IMG/VR virus record: IMGVR_UViG_3300031788_000074
Span: 1-31,524 of that record
Source: a virus
Taxonomy: Duplodnaviria > Caudoviricetes
Length of the DNA: 31,524 bases
Strand: one strand, 5' to 3'
Part shown: one piece after another, positions 2,740-25,399 of the stretch
Position numbering within the stretch: position 1 is the stretch's first letter
How the letters are laid out: each line of letters opens with the position of its first letter
Notes under the pieces: generated by a model
The model's database searches: none
Told to the model about the DNA's origin: nothing
The model's input: the letters and a program-made list of their open reading frames with translations, nothing else
Position numbers and translations under genes: made by a program

Positions 2740-3636
2740 ATGATTGAATTTACAAAGCTAGGCGCAGTCCACGAAGAAGATCCTCAAGGCTTCAAACTTG
2801 GACAGATCCAGGTACCGGTCGCGGGAATCCCAGATCAATACCTCTGCAACGACGATGGGCCACTCGTGACCGATCTCCCGATCCTTATGCAAGGCCAGTC
2901 GCCGGAGTGCGGCGGGTTCAGTCTCGCAACCCTGATCAACTTCTTCAAGAAAGCCGGTGCATCGCTCTCGGGGAGCTTCACCTACGCATTCGAAAAGACC
3001 GTGGACGGATTGCCGACCATCCAAGGAACCCTCATCAGCGCCGTTGGTAAAGCTGGAGCGCAGGCAGGATCCTGCCTCGATACGCTATTCCCAGATGACG
3101 GCGCCGGAAACACGTTCGTAGAAAATCCGATATTCTCAACCGCCAGCCCTGAAGCGGTAGCGGATGGAAAGACACGTCTCATGGGTACCCCATTCCTCCT
3201 CGATGACCTCTCAATCGCGGGCATCCAACAGGCGCTCTACCAGAATGGCGCCGTGATCCTCGAAGTTCAGGTGGGCAAGGAATGGTGGACGGCCGCCAAC
3301 GGCGCTACCTCATGGAACGCCGAAGACATTCTCCCGATCCGTCCGCCGGCAACCGTGATCGACTCGCACTTCATCTGCGTCATCCCTTACGACCAGAAAA
3401 ATGATCGCCTCTGGTTCGCTAACACGTGGTCAACCGAATGGGGAAAGAACGGCTGGGGATATCTCCAATCGAACTACGCGCCATTCATCAAAGCCGGCAT
3501 AGCATTCAAGAATATCCCGCCGAGCGTGTTCAAAGCGCTCACCATGGGGCAGATCGAAATCGCGCAGCAGATCCTCTCCGACTTCTCGGCGGTCTTGAAA
3601 GATATCGCCGCAGAAGCAAAGGTCGCAACCCAATAG
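2740..3636 (+). CDS. Papain-like (C1 family) cysteine peptidase, possible lysin
   Basis: QGQSPECGGFS (oxyanion Gln, catalytic Cys), SHFICV (His) and FANTWSTEWGKNGWG (Asn motif). Adjacent to a holin-like gene. Confidence 0.85.
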   Translation: MIEFTKLGAVHEEDPQGFKLGQIQVPVAGIPDQYLCNDDGPLVTDLPILMQGQSPECGGFSLATLINFFKKAGASLSGSFTYAFEKTVDGLPTIQGTLISAVGKAGAQAGSCLDTLFPDDGAGNTFVENPIFSTASPEAVADGKTRLMGTPFLLDDLSIAGIQQALYQNGAVILEVQVGKEWWTAANGATSWNAEDILPIRPPATVIDSHFICVIPYDQKNDRLWFANTWSTEWGKNGWGYLQSNYAPFIKAGIAFKNIPPSVFKALTMGQIEIAQQILSDFSAVLKDIAAEAKVATQ

Positions 3637-3643
3637 CATCATC

Positions 3644-3952
3644 ATGAACATACTCCTTCAAACGTGGGCGGTCATCGGCCCCTATGCCATCACCGGAGCA
3701 GTGGTCAGCTTGATCGTGCAATTTACGAAGAGTTTCTTCGCAAAGAGCGCACACAAGCTCCTTTGGGCGATCGTGATATCCATTCTGGGCGGCGTCGTCC
3801 TCCAGTTTGTGTATCTCATCCCGACGAATTGGTTCGGCACGATCGTGGCGGTTCTCGCTTCGGCGAACACCGTCTATCTCGTCGTCATCCAATGGTTCGA
3901 GAGCGATACCCCGGCGCCAGCGGTAACTGCATCGGTCGCAGCAACGAGTTAA
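3644..3952 (+). CDS. Holin-like membrane protein (3 predicted TM segments)
   Basis: 102 aa with three hydrophobic stretches. Follows the peptidase and precedes a terminator. Confidence 0.65.
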   Translation: MNILLQTWAVIGPYAITGAVVSLIVQFTKSFFAKSAHKLLWAIVISILGGVVLQFVYLIPTNWFGTIVAVLASANTVYLVVIQWFESDTPAPAVTASVAATS

Positions 3953-3956
3953 AGAC

Positions 3957-3986
3957 AAGCGCCCCATTTTCGTGGGGCGTTTTCTT
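3957..3986 (+). terminator. Intrinsic terminator ending the late/lysis operon
   Basis: Stem aagcgcccca/tggggcgttt with a short TTTTCG loop, followed by a T-rich tail. Confidence 0.8.
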
Positions 3987-4016
3987 CAGCTCATTGAGAA
4001 CTGAAAAGGAGAAACC

Positions 4017-4220
4017 ATGTGTCCGCAAAAGGTCTGTCCGAAGTGCTGCCTACGCATTCCCGCTCACGCAACGGAATGCACGACCAACGGCTGTCATCAT
4101 ATCTTCGACGACTCCCAACCGAGCGTCGCGCCCATCGGCCGTACCTACCCCGCCGGGATCAATCCCGACCTCGACGGCGCGAATGAGGACCGGATCCTCC
4201 GGCACTACTATCTCAACTGA
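4017..4220 (+). CDS. Small Cys-rich zinc-ribbon protein
   Basis: CPKC...CTTNGCHH. Canonical SD AAGGAG (4006-4011) lies 5 nt before the ATG. Confidence 0.6.
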   Translation: MCPQKVCPKCCLRIPAHATECTTNGCHHIFDDSQPSVAPIGRTYPAGINPDLDGANEDRILRHYYLN

Positions 4221-4223
4221 AAG

Positions 4224-4236
4224 GGAGGTGATCCAA
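4224..4236 (+). other. 13-nt complement of the 16S rRNA 3' end (GGAGGTGATCCAA)
   Basis: Reverse complement of the 16S tail TTGGATCACCTCC. 4223-4230 can pair with cgcctccc at 4256-4263. Confidence 0.6.
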
Positions 4237-4452
4237 ATCTAAGGGAGTCCCAAAACGCCTCCCACAAGGGGACATTCGCGCCAAACAGCCGGATGTCCCT
4301 TTTTCTATCAAAAAACGAAATAAGCCGTTCATAAGGGGCAAAAGTGGCATAATAAAACGCCCCTTGAAGCTCAATAAATGGGCTGGGGCGTACCTGGGTA
4401 CTGAATAGAACGTATAGCGACACAAAAAGAAACGCGCGGCAAGGGGTAAAGG

Positions 4453-4498
4453 TTATGCACAGTTAGCCGTTGACGGCTAAAAGAAATTGGAGCATACT
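4453..4498 (+). promoter_or_regulatory. Early promoter with DnaA box and palindromic operator
   Basis: TTATGCACA 4453-4461, then TTGACG 4470-4475, 17 nt, CATACT 4493-4498. A perfect inverted repeat TTAGCCGT-tg-ACGGCTAA (4463-4480) covers the -35. Confidence 0.75.
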
Positions 4499-21276: not shown

Positions 21277-21678
21277 ATGAAGGAGATGACGACAATGCCG
21301 AATATCGGCGGAGGTCTCGACCGCAAGGTCCGGGATCGGCTGATCTGCATCAACAACGAATGCTGGGACGTCGTATCGAAGAAGATCCGCACCGGCCTCA
21401 CGAAAGACACGACGGACTACTCGACGATCAACACGGCCATGGAGCTTCTTGAATCGCGCAGCACTCCCGAAGACAAAAAAGCGGTGTTGCGTCAGCTCAT
21501 CGTGGGCGGGAAAATGACCCCGCAGAAAGCGTCCGAGGTCAATGAGCTATTCGAGCGCGAACTGTCGCTCTGCATGGATACCAAGATCCAAATAGCGATC
21601 AGAAAAGGACTCTTGCCGGCGCCGAGCAAGAACGATCCGATGATGGCACGAATGAACCGGCGCATACCGAAAAAATGA
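21277..21678 (+). CDS. Hypothetical protein
   Basis: 133 aa, packed in the operon. Confidence 0.7.
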   Translation: MKEMTTMPNIGGGLDRKVRDRLICINNECWDVVSKKIRTGLTKDTTDYSTINTAMELLESRSTPEDKKAVLRQLIVGGKMTPQKASEVNELFERELSLCMDTKIQIAIRKGLLPAPSKNDPMMARMNRRIPKK

Positions 21679-21950
21679 CGATCAAACCATTGCGCAACAA
21701 CCTATTCGTCGAACCTCTTGCGGTCGAAAACAAGAGCAAGTCCGGGATCATCATCACCGGCGCGGACGAACCGAGCGGCACGAAAGGAACGGTGAAGTAT
21801 GCCGGGCCTCTCTGCATTGCCGTGAGTGTTGGCGACGTGGTATATTATAAAAAATATGCACCCGAGGAGATCGAGCTTGAAGGCGTGACATACGGCGTGA
21901 TCTCCGAAGATGATGTAATGGCAATCATTCCACAAAATCATGAAGGATAA
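21675..21950 (+). CDS. groES: Co-chaperonin GroES
   Basis: IKPLRNNLFVE, SKSGIII mobile loop, GTVKYAGP, VGDVVYYKKY and ISEDDVMAII. Confidence 0.92.
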   Translation: MTIKPLRNNLFVEPLAVENKSKSGIIITGADEPSGTKGTVKYAGPLCIAVSVGDVVYYKKYAPEEIELEGVTYGVISEDDVMAIIPQNHEG

Positions 21951-22341
21951 AAATAATTTCTACGTGAAGAATCCCCACGGCACAGTGGTCGTGGTGGGAG
22001 AGAGCGAACTCGTGGGCATCAAGCGGAATATCGAAGCCGGCCTGAACTTCGAGATCCTCGGCCCGGTGGCCGCGCAGGAAGGCGAATCCGGAGTGGGAGT
22101 CGAACTACCGGAAAATCAAGACAAGAACCCACTCGAATGCCTAACATGCGGCCACGTGGCGGAAAGCCCGGAATCGCTGACGGAACATCTGATGGAGCAT
22201 CTCCCCGAGTCCGAAAGGTCCTCTACATCGGCAACTTCTTCGCCGACTACCTCACCGAAACCCACCTCTCGAAAAGCCTCGAAGAACTCGGCATCGAAGT
22301 CGTCAGGATCAGCGAAAAAAACTGTAGCGAAAAAGCGATAA
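21940..22341 (+). CDS. C2H2 zinc-finger protein (C-terminal ~40 aa probably a shadow of the next gene)
   Basis: CLTCGHVAESPESLTEHLMEH. Confidence 0.6.
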   Translation: MKDKNNFYVKNPHGTVVVVGESELVGIKRNIEAGLNFEILGPVAAQEGESGVGVELPENQDKNPLECLTCGHVAESPESLTEHLMEHLPESERSSTSATSSPTTSPKPTSRKASKNSASKSSGSAKKTVAKKR

Positions 22342-23150
22342 GAGATGCTGCTGTCGGATGCGATACGGTCTTCTACCAGCGAACATTCGGCATGCCGTTC
22401 GACTTTACCAAGCTGGGCATCCGATCAGTTTCTTACACTCTTGACCTCTATCTCGGGCTTAACCGTGCCATGGGAATGGCAAATAATCCATTTTGGCGGG
22501 CAGACTACGTATTTACTGTCGACGGAGGCCACGATGATATCTTCGAAGCTCGTGGGATCAGGCATCACTATCTTCCTGCAGCGGTATACGGGGCTGAATG
22601 TGGAATGGGTACCGCCAAAGAGGAATACGCATGTGATGTGGCGTTTGTCGGAACCTATCACTACCTGAAGGAATGGCCGTACCGGCGCAAGCTGGTGGAC
22701 TTCCTCAAGAAGACCTATGGCGACCGCTTCAAACTGTTCGGCGACGTGATTGGCAACGAGGATCCGGGCCACAAGATCATGGTGTTCGGAAAAGACCTGA
22801 ATGACGTCTACGCATCGGCAAAGGTGGTGGTCTGCGACAGCCTGAACAGCCGCGAGTACTGGAGCAACCGGGTGTACGAAACGATCGGGCGCGGCGGGTT
22901 CGCCATCCATCCGAAAGTGGTAGGACTCGAGAAAGAGTTCGAATATGGCAAGCATCTCGTGCCATACGATTACGGAGACTTCGAAGGGCTGAAGCGCAAG
23001 ATCGATTACTATCTCGCGCACCCGACGGAGCGAGAACGGATCCGCGCGGCAGGCATGGAGTACGTCTCGAAGCACAAGACCTTCGTGAACCGGGCAGAGC
23101 AGATCCTCAAGGTCATCGCGGGCAAAAAAATTGATCCATACAAAACATGA
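22137..23150 (+). CDS. GT-B glycosyltransferase (CgeB/Glyco_trans_1_2-like)
   Basis: KVLYIGNF, DVAFVG, YWSNRVYETIGRGGF and IDYYLAHPTERERIRAAG...HKTFVNR. Start uncertain. Confidence 0.9.
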   Translation: MPNMRPRGGKPGIADGTSDGASPRVRKVLYIGNFFADYLTETHLSKSLEELGIEVVRISEKNCSEKAIRDAAVGCDTVFYQRTFGMPFDFTKLGIRSVSYTLDLYLGLNRAMGMANNPFWRADYVFTVDGGHDDIFEARGIRHHYLPAAVYGAECGMGTAKEEYACDVAFVGTYHYLKEWPYRRKLVDFLKKTYGDRFKLFGDVIGNEDPGHKIMVFGKDLNDVYASAKVVVCDSLNSREYWSNRVYETIGRGGFAIHPKVVGLEKEFEYGKHLVPYDYGDFEGLKRKIDYYLAHPTERERIRAAGMEYVSKHKTFVNRAEQILKVIAGKKIDPYKT

Positions 23151-23770
23151 TCCTCGATATCCAAGACGACAAAGAGCAAGGCATCTATGACGAGATATGG
23201 GTGGATAAAGTCTACGGCGAACAGCCGGAGCCGGGCCAGATTGTCCTCGATATCGGGGCAAACATCGGCTACTTCACGCTCTATGCCCTCCAGGCGAGCG
23301 CGAAAGTGTACGCATTCGAACCCGAGCCGCACAACTACGACCGGCTGGTGGCGCAGGTCAAAGCCAATGACTTCATATTCGCAAGCGGTTCGGCATTCAA
23401 GATGGCCGTAGCGGGAGATGAGGGCGGCCGCACTCTCTACCTCAACCCGGTGAATATCGGAGGCCATAGGATCGTGGGAGATATTGGCGCCGGCAAGATC
23501 AAGGTGGCAAGCATCACCCTCGACGAGATCTGTAAGGACCTGGACCGCATCGATATGATCAAGATGGACTGCGAAGGCGCAGAGCATGAGATATTCGAAG
23601 CCGCCTCACCCGAGACGATGGCGAAAATCCAAAAGATCGTGATGGAGTTCCACCCGGTGAAGCCGCTCGAGGGATTCCTCGATATCCTGCGGCCATATTT
23701 TGATATTCAGCTGAAGCAAAACAAGTGGGACTCGTCGCTCCCTTACATCTGGGCAACCAAAAAGCAATGA
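23147..23770 (+). CDS. FkbM-family SAM-dependent methyltransferase
   Basis: VLDIGANIG, AFEPEP, IKMDCEGAE and MEFH. Confidence 0.92.
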   Translation: MILDIQDDKEQGIYDEIWVDKVYGEQPEPGQIVLDIGANIGYFTLYALQASAKVYAFEPEPHNYDRLVAQVKANDFIFASGSAFKMAVAGDEGGRTLYLNPVNIGGHRIVGDIGAGKIKVASITLDEICKDLDRIDMIKMDCEGAEHEIFEAASPETMAKIQKIVMEFHPVKPLEGFLDILRPYFDIQLKQNKWDSSLPYIWATKKQ

Positions 23771-24426
23771 AAGAAAAATATCGACATGACGCATTCGATC
23801 TGAAGTGGCTCGTTCGAAACTCGACCGACGAGGCGATCATCCAAGAGGTGTGCGCACAGAAGGTCTATGGCGACACGATCAAGCCGGGCGACAAGGTGAT
23901 CGACATCGGGGCGCAACTCGGGAGCTTTACGGTGTTCGCGGCATCAAAAGGGGCTTCTGTGAGGTCTTTTGAGCCGGATCCCGACAACTACGCCACTATG
24001 CTCGAAAACATCGCCCTGAACGATTTCCAGGCCACTGTGACCCCCTATAACGACGCCGTCTGGTCAAACCATGGCGAAATTACCCTCTATGACAGCTGTT
24101 CGGAGAATTTGGGCGCCCATTCGGCCATATTCGCCCGCGACGCAAACGCATCCGTGAAGGTCCCGGCGATCACGCTCGACGAGGCGATGGAAGGCTGGGA
24201 CGAGGTGGACTTCCTGAAGATGGACTGCGAAGGTAGCGAGTTCGAGATCATGAAAAGCGATCGCGTGAAAGACATCAAAGCATTTTCGATGGAAGTGCAT
24301 GGCTTCGTCACGAACATCGAGGACTATATGAAATTCCGGGACCGGCTTGCGCAGTGGTTCGATCTGCGCGAAGGGGTATGGCATGAGGTTATCTTCTACC
24401 TCCATGGAACGCGCAAAAACCAATAA
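23767..24426 (+). CDS. FkbM-family SAM-dependent methyltransferase (second copy)
   Basis: VIDIGAQLG, SFEPDP, LKMDCEGSE and MEVH. Start ATG 23767. Confidence 0.92.
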   Translation: MKEKYRHDAFDLKWLVRNSTDEAIIQEVCAQKVYGDTIKPGDKVIDIGAQLGSFTVFAASKGASVRSFEPDPDNYATMLENIALNDFQATVTPYNDAVWSNHGEITLYDSCSENLGAHSAIFARDANASVKVPAITLDEAMEGWDEVDFLKMDCEGSEFEIMKSDRVKDIKAFSMEVHGFVTNIEDYMKFRDRLAQWFDLREGVWHEVIFYLHGTRKNQ

Positions 24427-25399
24427 GCGAATAGGATTCATTGCCCGGTGCGATGATACCGGACTCGGCGTCGAGTCTATGGAGTTCGTTGAGCATGTGA
24501 AGCCGGACAAGATCATGACGCTCATGATCGGATACAAGAAGCAGCACCCCGAGCGATTCCCTGGCTCGACCGTGATCAGGGGCGTACCGAGCGAGCATGA
24601 GATCCGCACATGGCTCGAAGGACTCGACGTGGTGTTCGCAATCGAGACTGGCTATCATCCGTTCTTCTTCTCGATATGCCACCGCGCCGGCGTGAAAACG
24701 ATCCTGCGCGTGAATTACGAATACCTCGACGTATGCACCGGCATCAATCGCCCCGATCTCTTCCTGCTGCCGACGCCATGGCATGAAGCTGACGTACCGA
24801 ATCCCAAAAAGGTGCTACCGTTCCCCATCAATACCGATCGCGTGAAAGCGCGGGAGATCAAAACGGCGCAGACGTTCGTCCACATCGCAGGCCACCGCGG
24901 GTATATGGACCGGAACGGAACGGAACTATTCCTCCGCGTGATTCCCTTGGTGAAAAGCCCGGCGAAGTTCATCATCTACGACCAAGCGGGCGGCCTGAAG
25001 ACAAAAGACAAACGCGCCGAGATCAGGGGAGAAGCGAAGCACTACTGGGATATGTATGCCGACGGCGACGTTCTCGTGATCCCTCGAAAGCATTCCGGGC
25101 AATGCCTCCCCATGAGGGAAGCAATGGCGGCAGGTATGCCGACATTGATGCCCGATATGGACCCGCAAAACAAGATCCTCGAGCCGGAGTGGCTCATCCC
25201 GATCCGCCGCGAGCTATCGGTGGATATCAAGAAGCGAATCGAGTATGCGGATATCGATCCGGCAAAGGTCGCACAAAAAATAGACGAATGGTATAATAAA
25301 AATATATGGCAGACTTCCTCAAAGTTGATAAAGAAGGCACAGTCCGAAAATTGGACGGCACTCCTACCGGAGTATCTCAAGCTCCTGCAAAATCTGTAG
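24404..25399 (+). CDS. GT-B (GT4-like) glycosyltransferase
   Basis: IGFIARCDDTGLG, FVHIAG and DVLVIPRKHSGQCLPMREAMAAGMP. Confidence 0.88.
   Translation: MERAKTNKRIGFIARCDDTGLGVESMEFVEHVKPDKIMTLMIGYKKQHPERFPGSTVIRGVPSEHEIRTWLEGLDVVFAIETGYHPFFFSICHRAGVKTILRVNYEYLDVCTGINRPDLFLLPTPWHEADVPNPKKVLPFPINTDRVKAREIKTAQTFVHIAGHRGYMDRNGTELFLRVIPLVKSPAKFIIYDQAGGLKTKDKRAEIRGEAKHYWDMYADGDVLVIPRKHSGQCLPMREAMAAGMPTLMPDMDPQNKILEPEWLIPIRRELSVDIKKRIEYADIDPAKVAQKIDEWYNKNIWQTSSKLIKKAQSENWTALLPEYLKLLQNL

Follow-up and report, generated by a model that had tools for sequence, protein, structure and literature searches.

A recurrent RNA element with an extended complement of the 16S rRNA tail and a near-invariant AUCU downstream of a small phage gene

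Extended 16S-tail complements and the phage locus

A few described RNAs carry extended Shine–Dalgarno (SD) sequences whose use departs from ordinary initiation. The small mRNAs rreB and rreR have a very long complement of the 16S tail, a 16–17-nt extended SD leading a GTG-started, conserved ORF of 14–18 codons; they make little or no protein, and the accessible part of their report gives their purpose as unknown (Hahn et al., PMC5711450). According to the same text, rreB binds the 30S subunit tightly and is translated poorly, and 20-fold overproduction of ribosome-bound rreB leaves growth unchanged (PMC5711450). The start-less STAB-SD of Bacillus thuringiensis cry3A protects the gene that follows it from a position in the 5' UTR, where it is described, in the sections available, as binding 30S and blocking RNase J1, a 30S roadblock (PMC4113751). 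In Staphylococcus aureus, infC, cvfC1 and ccpN combine an extended SD with an AUN triplet at start spacing, and the AUU or AUA starts open conserved genes, as far as the excerpted report goes (PMC13009471). Why RNAs such as rreB and STAB-SD bind the 16S tail tightly while remaining untranslated is a question for which the element described here offers a short, testable RNA.

The window, by which we mean the whole analysed stretch of 31,524 nucleotides, is one whole phage contig (31.5 kb) with genes including terminase, portal, capsid and recombination functions. Between a peptidase/holin-like pair (2740–3952) and the early operon lies a 67-aa gene (4017..4220, + strand). On the same strand, its stop codon is directly followed by an extended complement of the 16S 3' tail (AAGGGAGGTGATCCA, 4221..4235), by AUCU(AA) at 4237..4242, a near-invariant tetramer at start-codon spacing, by a first hairpin (4243..4263) and by a long hairpin with a U-tract (4266..4306). 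The last is terminator-like in its predicted fold, with a loop beyond the range of a simple terminator scanner. With 4221–4306 the window has its copy of a recurring RNA element, laid out as a stop codon, the 16S-tail complement, 0–4 free bases, (U)AUCU, a hairpin or pseudoknot and often a terminator.

The element resembles each of the known systems in part. Unlike rreB and rreR, it follows a stop codon and stands 3'-most in its unit, has 12–15 bp of complementarity followed by AUCU and a helix, and occurs across phyla and phages. Where those mRNAs have at least 16 nt of perfect complement, the window has 12 contiguous Watson–Crick pairs, or 15 bp with one G–U; in place of a GTG or ATG opening a conserved small ORF it has AUC-UAA, and the frames that follow AUC elsewhere run from 1 to 109 codons (89 sites). 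The Rfam model of rreB/rreR (CC2171) scores the window at 15.9 bits against a gathering score of 75. The window shares with STAB-SD an SD-like complement without a canonical start at proper spacing. It lies, however, 3' of an ORF and is followed by the terminator-like hairpin. Only some 85 nt of structured RNA come before the terminator, and the invariant AUCU with its adjoining helix has no counterpart in STAB-SD. As in the S. aureus genes, an AUN triplet stands at start spacing (ATC at 4237–4239; spacers 0–4), but the element has no conserved downstream frame and the base after the triplet is fixed. By analogy, the element appears to work like rreB or STAB-SD, yet it belongs to neither. Rfam returned nothing at gathering score in the window or at 20 motif loci, E-value hits were weak, and our literature search found no description of the element; papers containing the letters of the motif, judged by their listing, mostly concern 16S primers; subscription journals and supplementary motif tables could hold one.

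An accessory zinc-ribbon gene with its own expression signals

The single terminase relative that carries an organism name among the 120 listed comes from Candidatus Staskawiczbacteria (51% identity), and it points to a Patescibacteria cell as the probable host. SD pairing of −4.5 kcal/mol or stronger occurs at 1 of 41 likely starts, which were picked by hand: the start at 4017 reaches −8.0 kcal/mol, the next strongest −3.7 kcal/mol. The SD of the small ORF, AAGGAG at 4006..4011 (+ strand), is the only clear one among these likely starts, as the preliminary description of this DNA had stated. That description had also noticed the boxA-like leader GCTCATTGAGAACTGAA (3989..4005, + strand). It agrees at 9 of 11 positions with the consensus GYTCTTTAANA, taken from the available text of PMC5725501, and a boxA-like sequence directly 5' of a gene's SD is likewise described there for E. 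coli suhB. The leader of the window differs from the consensus at 2 of 11 positions, has no link to the downstream element, and its Nus binding is putative.

A relative of the small ORF, L013 (72% identity), keeps 3952–4027 almost unchanged, including 16 of the 17 leader positions and, nearly identical, a terminator-like hairpin with U-tract (3952..3986, + strand) that lies 3' of the holin-like gene and forms the 5' border of the accessory unit. The leader is absent from two further relatives, L009 and L010. Nine Patescibacteria rrn leaders hold motifs loosely like it, with best matches at 10–12 of 17 positions; in 5 of the nine these stand between about −87 and −111. NusB is present in 47 of 51 Patescibacteria genomes, the phage host itself being only a presumed member of this group. 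We regard the leader as a separate, plausible input that is about as likely to be functional as not. A scan of the window found no promoter-like site upstream of the small-ORF/element unit; a promoter-like TTGACG-17-CATACT stands at 4470–4498, 5' of the early recombination genes.

The preliminary description had joined leader and anti-16S sequence into a single cassette, and this did not survive a check of co-occurrence. A boxA-like sequence precedes the SD in 6/48 element cassettes vs 13/197 other SD sites, and of the 25 exact matches only the window's own twin has the element beside it. Coupling of boxA to the element was therefore rejected. The boxA-like leader with its SD and the downstream element (4221–4306) are two separate things; the former probably serves to express an accessory gene in an otherwise SD-less phage.

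The small ORF is a real gene: four cysteines in two knuckles (C7, C10, C21 and C26) are invariant in 7/7 sequences, pN/pS is 0.07–0.30 (6 pairs, first 44–45 codons) and a profile search gives 28 hits. Its product is a zinc ribbon of generic type that also carries the conserved motif APIGRTYPxG. The N-terminal 30 residues of its model have a pLDDT of about 89. Near the C-terminus, (V)APIGRTYPxGTxP (window 4128–4160) recurs in most of 19 further homologues and may be a binding motif or a nascent-peptide signal. The cysteine spacing (window 4017–4110) is like that of the eukaryotic ribosomal protein eL40, whose chains account for 22 of the 25 PDB profile hits at an E-value of 1 or below, the best at 7.6e-4. 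The eL40 Pfam score is 16.8 bits, under the cut-off of 23; Foldseek with the model gave nothing at E≤0.001, with hits to the RanBP2-type finger fold not significant; and ESM Atlas hits, all below 0.9, lead to generic zinc ribbons only. The likeness to eL40 is borderline.

Upstream of the small ORF, L009 (2271–2993) and L010 (1777–2487) each carry an SD-led gene of some 240 aa, the two genes being related, and in L300 a similar-looking gene ends directly at the element. All three units resemble mobile cassettes that use SD sequences in phages poor in them. The element also shows that SD-dependent units persist in Patescibacteria and their phages, where the remaining genes have no SD. Elsewhere in the window, the virion region (21675–25399) holds a GroES-like gene, two glycosyltransferases and two FkbM methyltransferases.

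Architecture and recurrence of the element

With the Patescibacteria 16S tail, 4221–4235 forms a duplex of 15 bp including one G–U (−26.7 kcal/mol), the strongest 16S-tail duplex in the window (runner-up −19.8 kcal/mol). The 11-mer GGAGGTGATCC has one match in the window, and 1 of 100 shuffles holds one. The preliminary description had called GGAGGTGATCCAA (4224–4236) a 13-nt 16S complement with no suitably spaced start codon. The site is present, but the contiguous match to Patescibacteria 16S tails is 12 nt; ATG, GTG and TTG are indeed missing, but ATC stands at start spacing. A 12/13 direct repeat (3999 and 4215) also exists as described; since about half of 300 resampled regions hold one, and the second copy is altered in L013, a role for it was rejected. 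The proposed masking helix (4223–4230 with 4256–4263) appears in the minimum free energy fold and was rejected as a functional feature because it is unconserved in L013 and in L240, a further locus with the element.

In L013 and L240, a local hairpin behind AUCUAA takes up the segment that matches the masking arm. When the SD is kept unpaired, CTCCC of the window likewise pairs with 4243–4247, giving the first hairpin (4243–4247 with 4259–4263), which is predicted for an occupied SD as the alternative to masking. In predicted folds of isolated fragments the SD core is mostly paired, with a mean unpaired probability of 0.25 (0.01 in the window). Judged from the sequence, bases 4247–4251 in the loop of this hairpin may pair with 4269–4273 on the 5' side of the terminator-like stem, possibly as an antiterminating pseudoknot; no counterpart is seen in L013 or L240.

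Four independent relatives of the small ORF come with DNA (L013, L010, L009 and L015), and only L013 has the full element, keeping GGAGGTGATCC-NN-ATCTAAGG. L010 has a degenerate copy inside the end of its ORF, and L009 and L015 have at this position an ordinary SD and ATG of a second small Cys-rich ORF. L240 carries the near-identical ATCTAAGGG behind an unrelated ORF.

The preliminary description had called for a search of phage genomes for the motif in non-start contexts. GGAGGTGATCC-NN-ATCT occurs in an estimated 350 viral stretches or so, compared with 44 for a control tail. An unbiased sample was drawn with AAAGGAGGTGATCC and the following bases left free, yielding 120 loci from 9/64 parts, 111 of them distinct. 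ATCT follows at spacer 1–4 in 34 loci, against a background of 1.8. Removal of 12 loci of one coding family, of near-end loci and of frames open for 100 nt on both sides left 48 non-coding viral sites. Here the extended SD is followed by ATCT in 19 cases, restricted to spacers 0–4, by ATG in 12, GTG in 6, GTCT in 4 and ATCG in 2, and never by ATCA, ATCC or ACCT. AUCU after a maximal SD is therefore about as frequent as ATG/GTG in non-coding viral DNA, and it has no Rfam family. An independent pattern in which TCC was left free gave 120 loci (107 distinct, 47 non-coding and start-less). The free spacer positions 1–3 are T, C and C in 32, 33 and 28 of these 47; together with the recurrence in unrelated genomes, this strongly supports the earlier proposal of pairing with the 16S 3' tail. 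U precedes AUCU in 35/86 sites of one set and 23/37 of the independent one. Several of the element counts are inflated by related sequences.

Stops of frames of at least 30 codons fall at −6 to −2 in 42 of 123 pooled non-coding sites, compared with 2–8 in each 6-nt bin farther to the 5' side. Such a frame ends at 42/79 of the stop triplets near the site and at 37/257 of the distant ones. Set against the ATG/GTG class, the stop-codon link is not significant (42/123 vs 2/19, p=0.059), and TAAG or TGAAAG at the stop can arise from 16S-tail complementarity. A terminator-like hairpin follows 35/123 element sites vs 0/19 ATG/GTG sites. The 45 nt after the element are more stably folded than those after ATG/GTG (median −11.2 vs −6.5 kcal/mol; 89 sites). 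A helix or pseudoknot begins 1–3 bases 3' of AUCU, and strong hairpins begin at +4 to +7 in 28 of 36 cases. An H-type pseudoknot-like fold lies right after AUCU in 21/123 sites (shuffles: mean 6.6, maximum 12); the copy in the window belongs to the hairpin class. Nine Erwinia jumbo-phage sequences have an invariant SD core and ATCT with a variable spacer between them, and at 4 of 10 pseudoknot pairs both partners have changed; the nine are related, and the structure was itself derived from them.

A second invariant motif, GCATAGCGC, lies between pseudoknot and terminator in 9/9 of these Erwinia sequences (L622 1690–1745, L023, L080). Separately, a hairpin loop of the form GG(C/T)TAA(C/T)..CC follows the element at 8 of 89 sites (L013, L035, L082, L084, L120, L307, L316 and L394; background 0.0006), and it accounts for 3/5 nearby 7-nt terminator loops vs 4/97 elsewhere.

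The element is found in unrelated phages, cultured Erwinia jumbo phages and Patescibacteria chromosomes. A strict motif occurs in 14/401 Patescibacteria genomes (centre included; reversed control 1) and, for a Bacillota phylum, in 8/301 genomes (control 0). Inspected by eye, the 13 new Patescibacteria hits comprise 7 true elements, the 16S gene itself and five sites within coding frames or on the strand opposite them; of the 9 new Bacillota matches, only 2 appear genuine. The element is real but sporadic. There is one copy per genome, chromosomal copies adjoin housekeeping genes, and in Saccharibacteria (L311, L333, L365) it forms stand-alone short units without an upstream ORF. This presence in host chromosomes leaves the phage-specific late/early switch suggested at the outset unsupported. 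Among cultured phages, the unit of the window has no relative, L061 and L003 are likewise without a match, and L030 matches Streptococcus phages in part only.

Three other readings of the motif were rejected. An extension of pairing into helix 45 would favour ATCC (0/48). Read-through or recoding at an internal TGA is at odds with a TGA closing a long frame in only 13/123 sites and with homologues that cross the motif in different frames. A peptide from AUC, or from GTG inside the SD, finds no conserved frame.

A proposed parked 30S subunit and competing explanations

We favour a reading of 4221–4306 as a whole in which a 30S subunit leaving the upstream gene would be captured by the element and held there without protein being made; the small ORF would bring ribosomes to it. 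The captured subunit would act in cis, probably controlling the stability or the 3' end of its own transcript. We give this reading a probability of roughly 0.55. It is favoured on account of the tight 30S binding, poor translation and lack of growth cost of rreB, combined with the 30S roadblock of STAB-SD. Its parts differ in strength. Binding of 30S through the 12–15 bp duplex is very likely, judging from complementarity, and loading by the terminating ribosome is reasonably probable because of the stop-codon link. Mature 30S, rather than pre-16S, is the expected target because the conserved complement ends about where the free 16S tail ends, which we take to be the helix 45 boundary. RNase J is present in 50/51 Patescibacteria genomes, with the caveat that this group is the presumed host.

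We infer that (U)AUCU makes a second sequence-specific contact, with the 16S 790 loop as lead candidate over a near-cognate start or self-pairing. AUCU(AA) is the reverse complement of 788–793 in this loop, and UAUCU that of 16S 790–794, the sole conserved AGAUA in 14 Patescibacteria 16S sequences; at one locus, L184, the match extends to 11 nt. Such a match is unremarkable by itself: across the same 14 sequences, 55% of all 4-mers and 14% of all 5-mers have a conserved occurrence. An A after AUCU, which favours the 790 loop, is in excess in one set (34/89) and did not repeat in the independent set (13/47). Tapprich and Hill reportedly connected the 790 loop with subunit association in 1986. 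It is exposed on 30S and takes part in that association, as stated in the available portion of a later report (PMC4613259). In a tentative version of the parked 30S, the subunit would be clamped at two points, by its whole free tail and by (U)AUCU(AA) on the conserved 790 loop beside the P site. The helix or pseudoknot would fill the decoding area, and a ribosome ending the upstream gene would be locked as 30S, unable to take initiator tRNA or join 50S. AUCU fits 790-loop pairing better than it fits a start codon, though such pairing is itself rather unlikely. Pairing with the loop would provide a second mRNA–rRNA contact and a compact way of parking ribosomes, and would make the element categorically new; if the clamp is true, an mRNA would naturally pair with 16S rRNA beyond the anti-SD, and phages and bacteria alike would use a ribosome trap that needs no protein.

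Slightly less favoured than the clamp, and improbable in our judgement, is a reading of AUC as a weak, IF3-sensitive start codon that follows an extended SD. A 70S initiation complex would form there (on AUC-UAA in the window) and, by occupying the site, would either open the adjacent hairpin or set off decay, as in rreB. AUC indeed has the same spacing as ATG/GTG within one sample, and the U enriched before it (35/86 and 23/37) agrees with such a start. So do the AUU/AUA starts of S. aureus served by extended SDs and the start codon required for rreB decay, as given in the available parts of the reports (PMC13009471; PMC5711450). The fixed U after AUC (19 vs 2) and the scarcity of ATA (1), ACG (0) and ATT (4) among the 48 sites are left unexplained. 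Neither frame nor length is conserved; a stop directly after AUC in 22/89 is about what codons starting with U give. In addition, a helix from +5 would overlap the A-site codon.

The preliminary description had proposed an abundant trans-acting sponge that sequesters free 30S or pre-16S and shuts down or redirects host translation. Such bulk sequestration is less likely than action on the element's own transcript, and we consider it distinctly unlikely. The strength of the 4221–4235 duplex, the stand-alone Saccharibacteria units and the exposed 790 loop with its part in subunit association (PMC4613259, in the portion available) would suit a sponge. Against it stand the unchanged growth under 20-fold rreB overproduction (PMC5711450, in the accessible text), the single copy per genome, the copies in host chromosomes beside housekeeping genes and the absence of a promoter-like site upstream of the unit in the window.

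Still less probable is self-pairing of AUCU with the SD (AGGU or GAU), or its recognition by a protein or nuclease, with the 16S match as only one state of a switch. AUCU/AGGU pairing is possible through one G–U, C or CC often follows AUCU (33 and 14 of 89), and three jumbo-phage loci have a perfect GUGAU/AUCAC stem; the median predicted self-pairing is nevertheless 0.06, and the better-pairing ACCT is absent (0/48). The least likely reading, a decayed ribosome-binding site of a lost second gene whose ATG turned into ATC, accords with the SD and ATG found there in L009 and L015 but is opposed by L013, which keeps the SD core and ATCTAAGG despite a synonymous difference of 0.57 per site in the ORF, and by the recurrence of the AUCU-helix layout in unrelated genomes and of near-identical ATCTAAGGG behind the unrelated ORF of L240.

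Apart from the non-coding element, one phage protein family keeps AAAGGAGGTGATCC in frame (R-K-E-V-I) at 12 diverged loci, around 351–364 of each (L182, L185, L189, L195, L199, L200, L214, L216, L249, L253, L257 and L294). ATCT, GTCT or TTCT often follows AAAGGAGGTGATCC in these loci, which were chosen by the motif; the in-frame copy is possibly an internal pause or recoding site.
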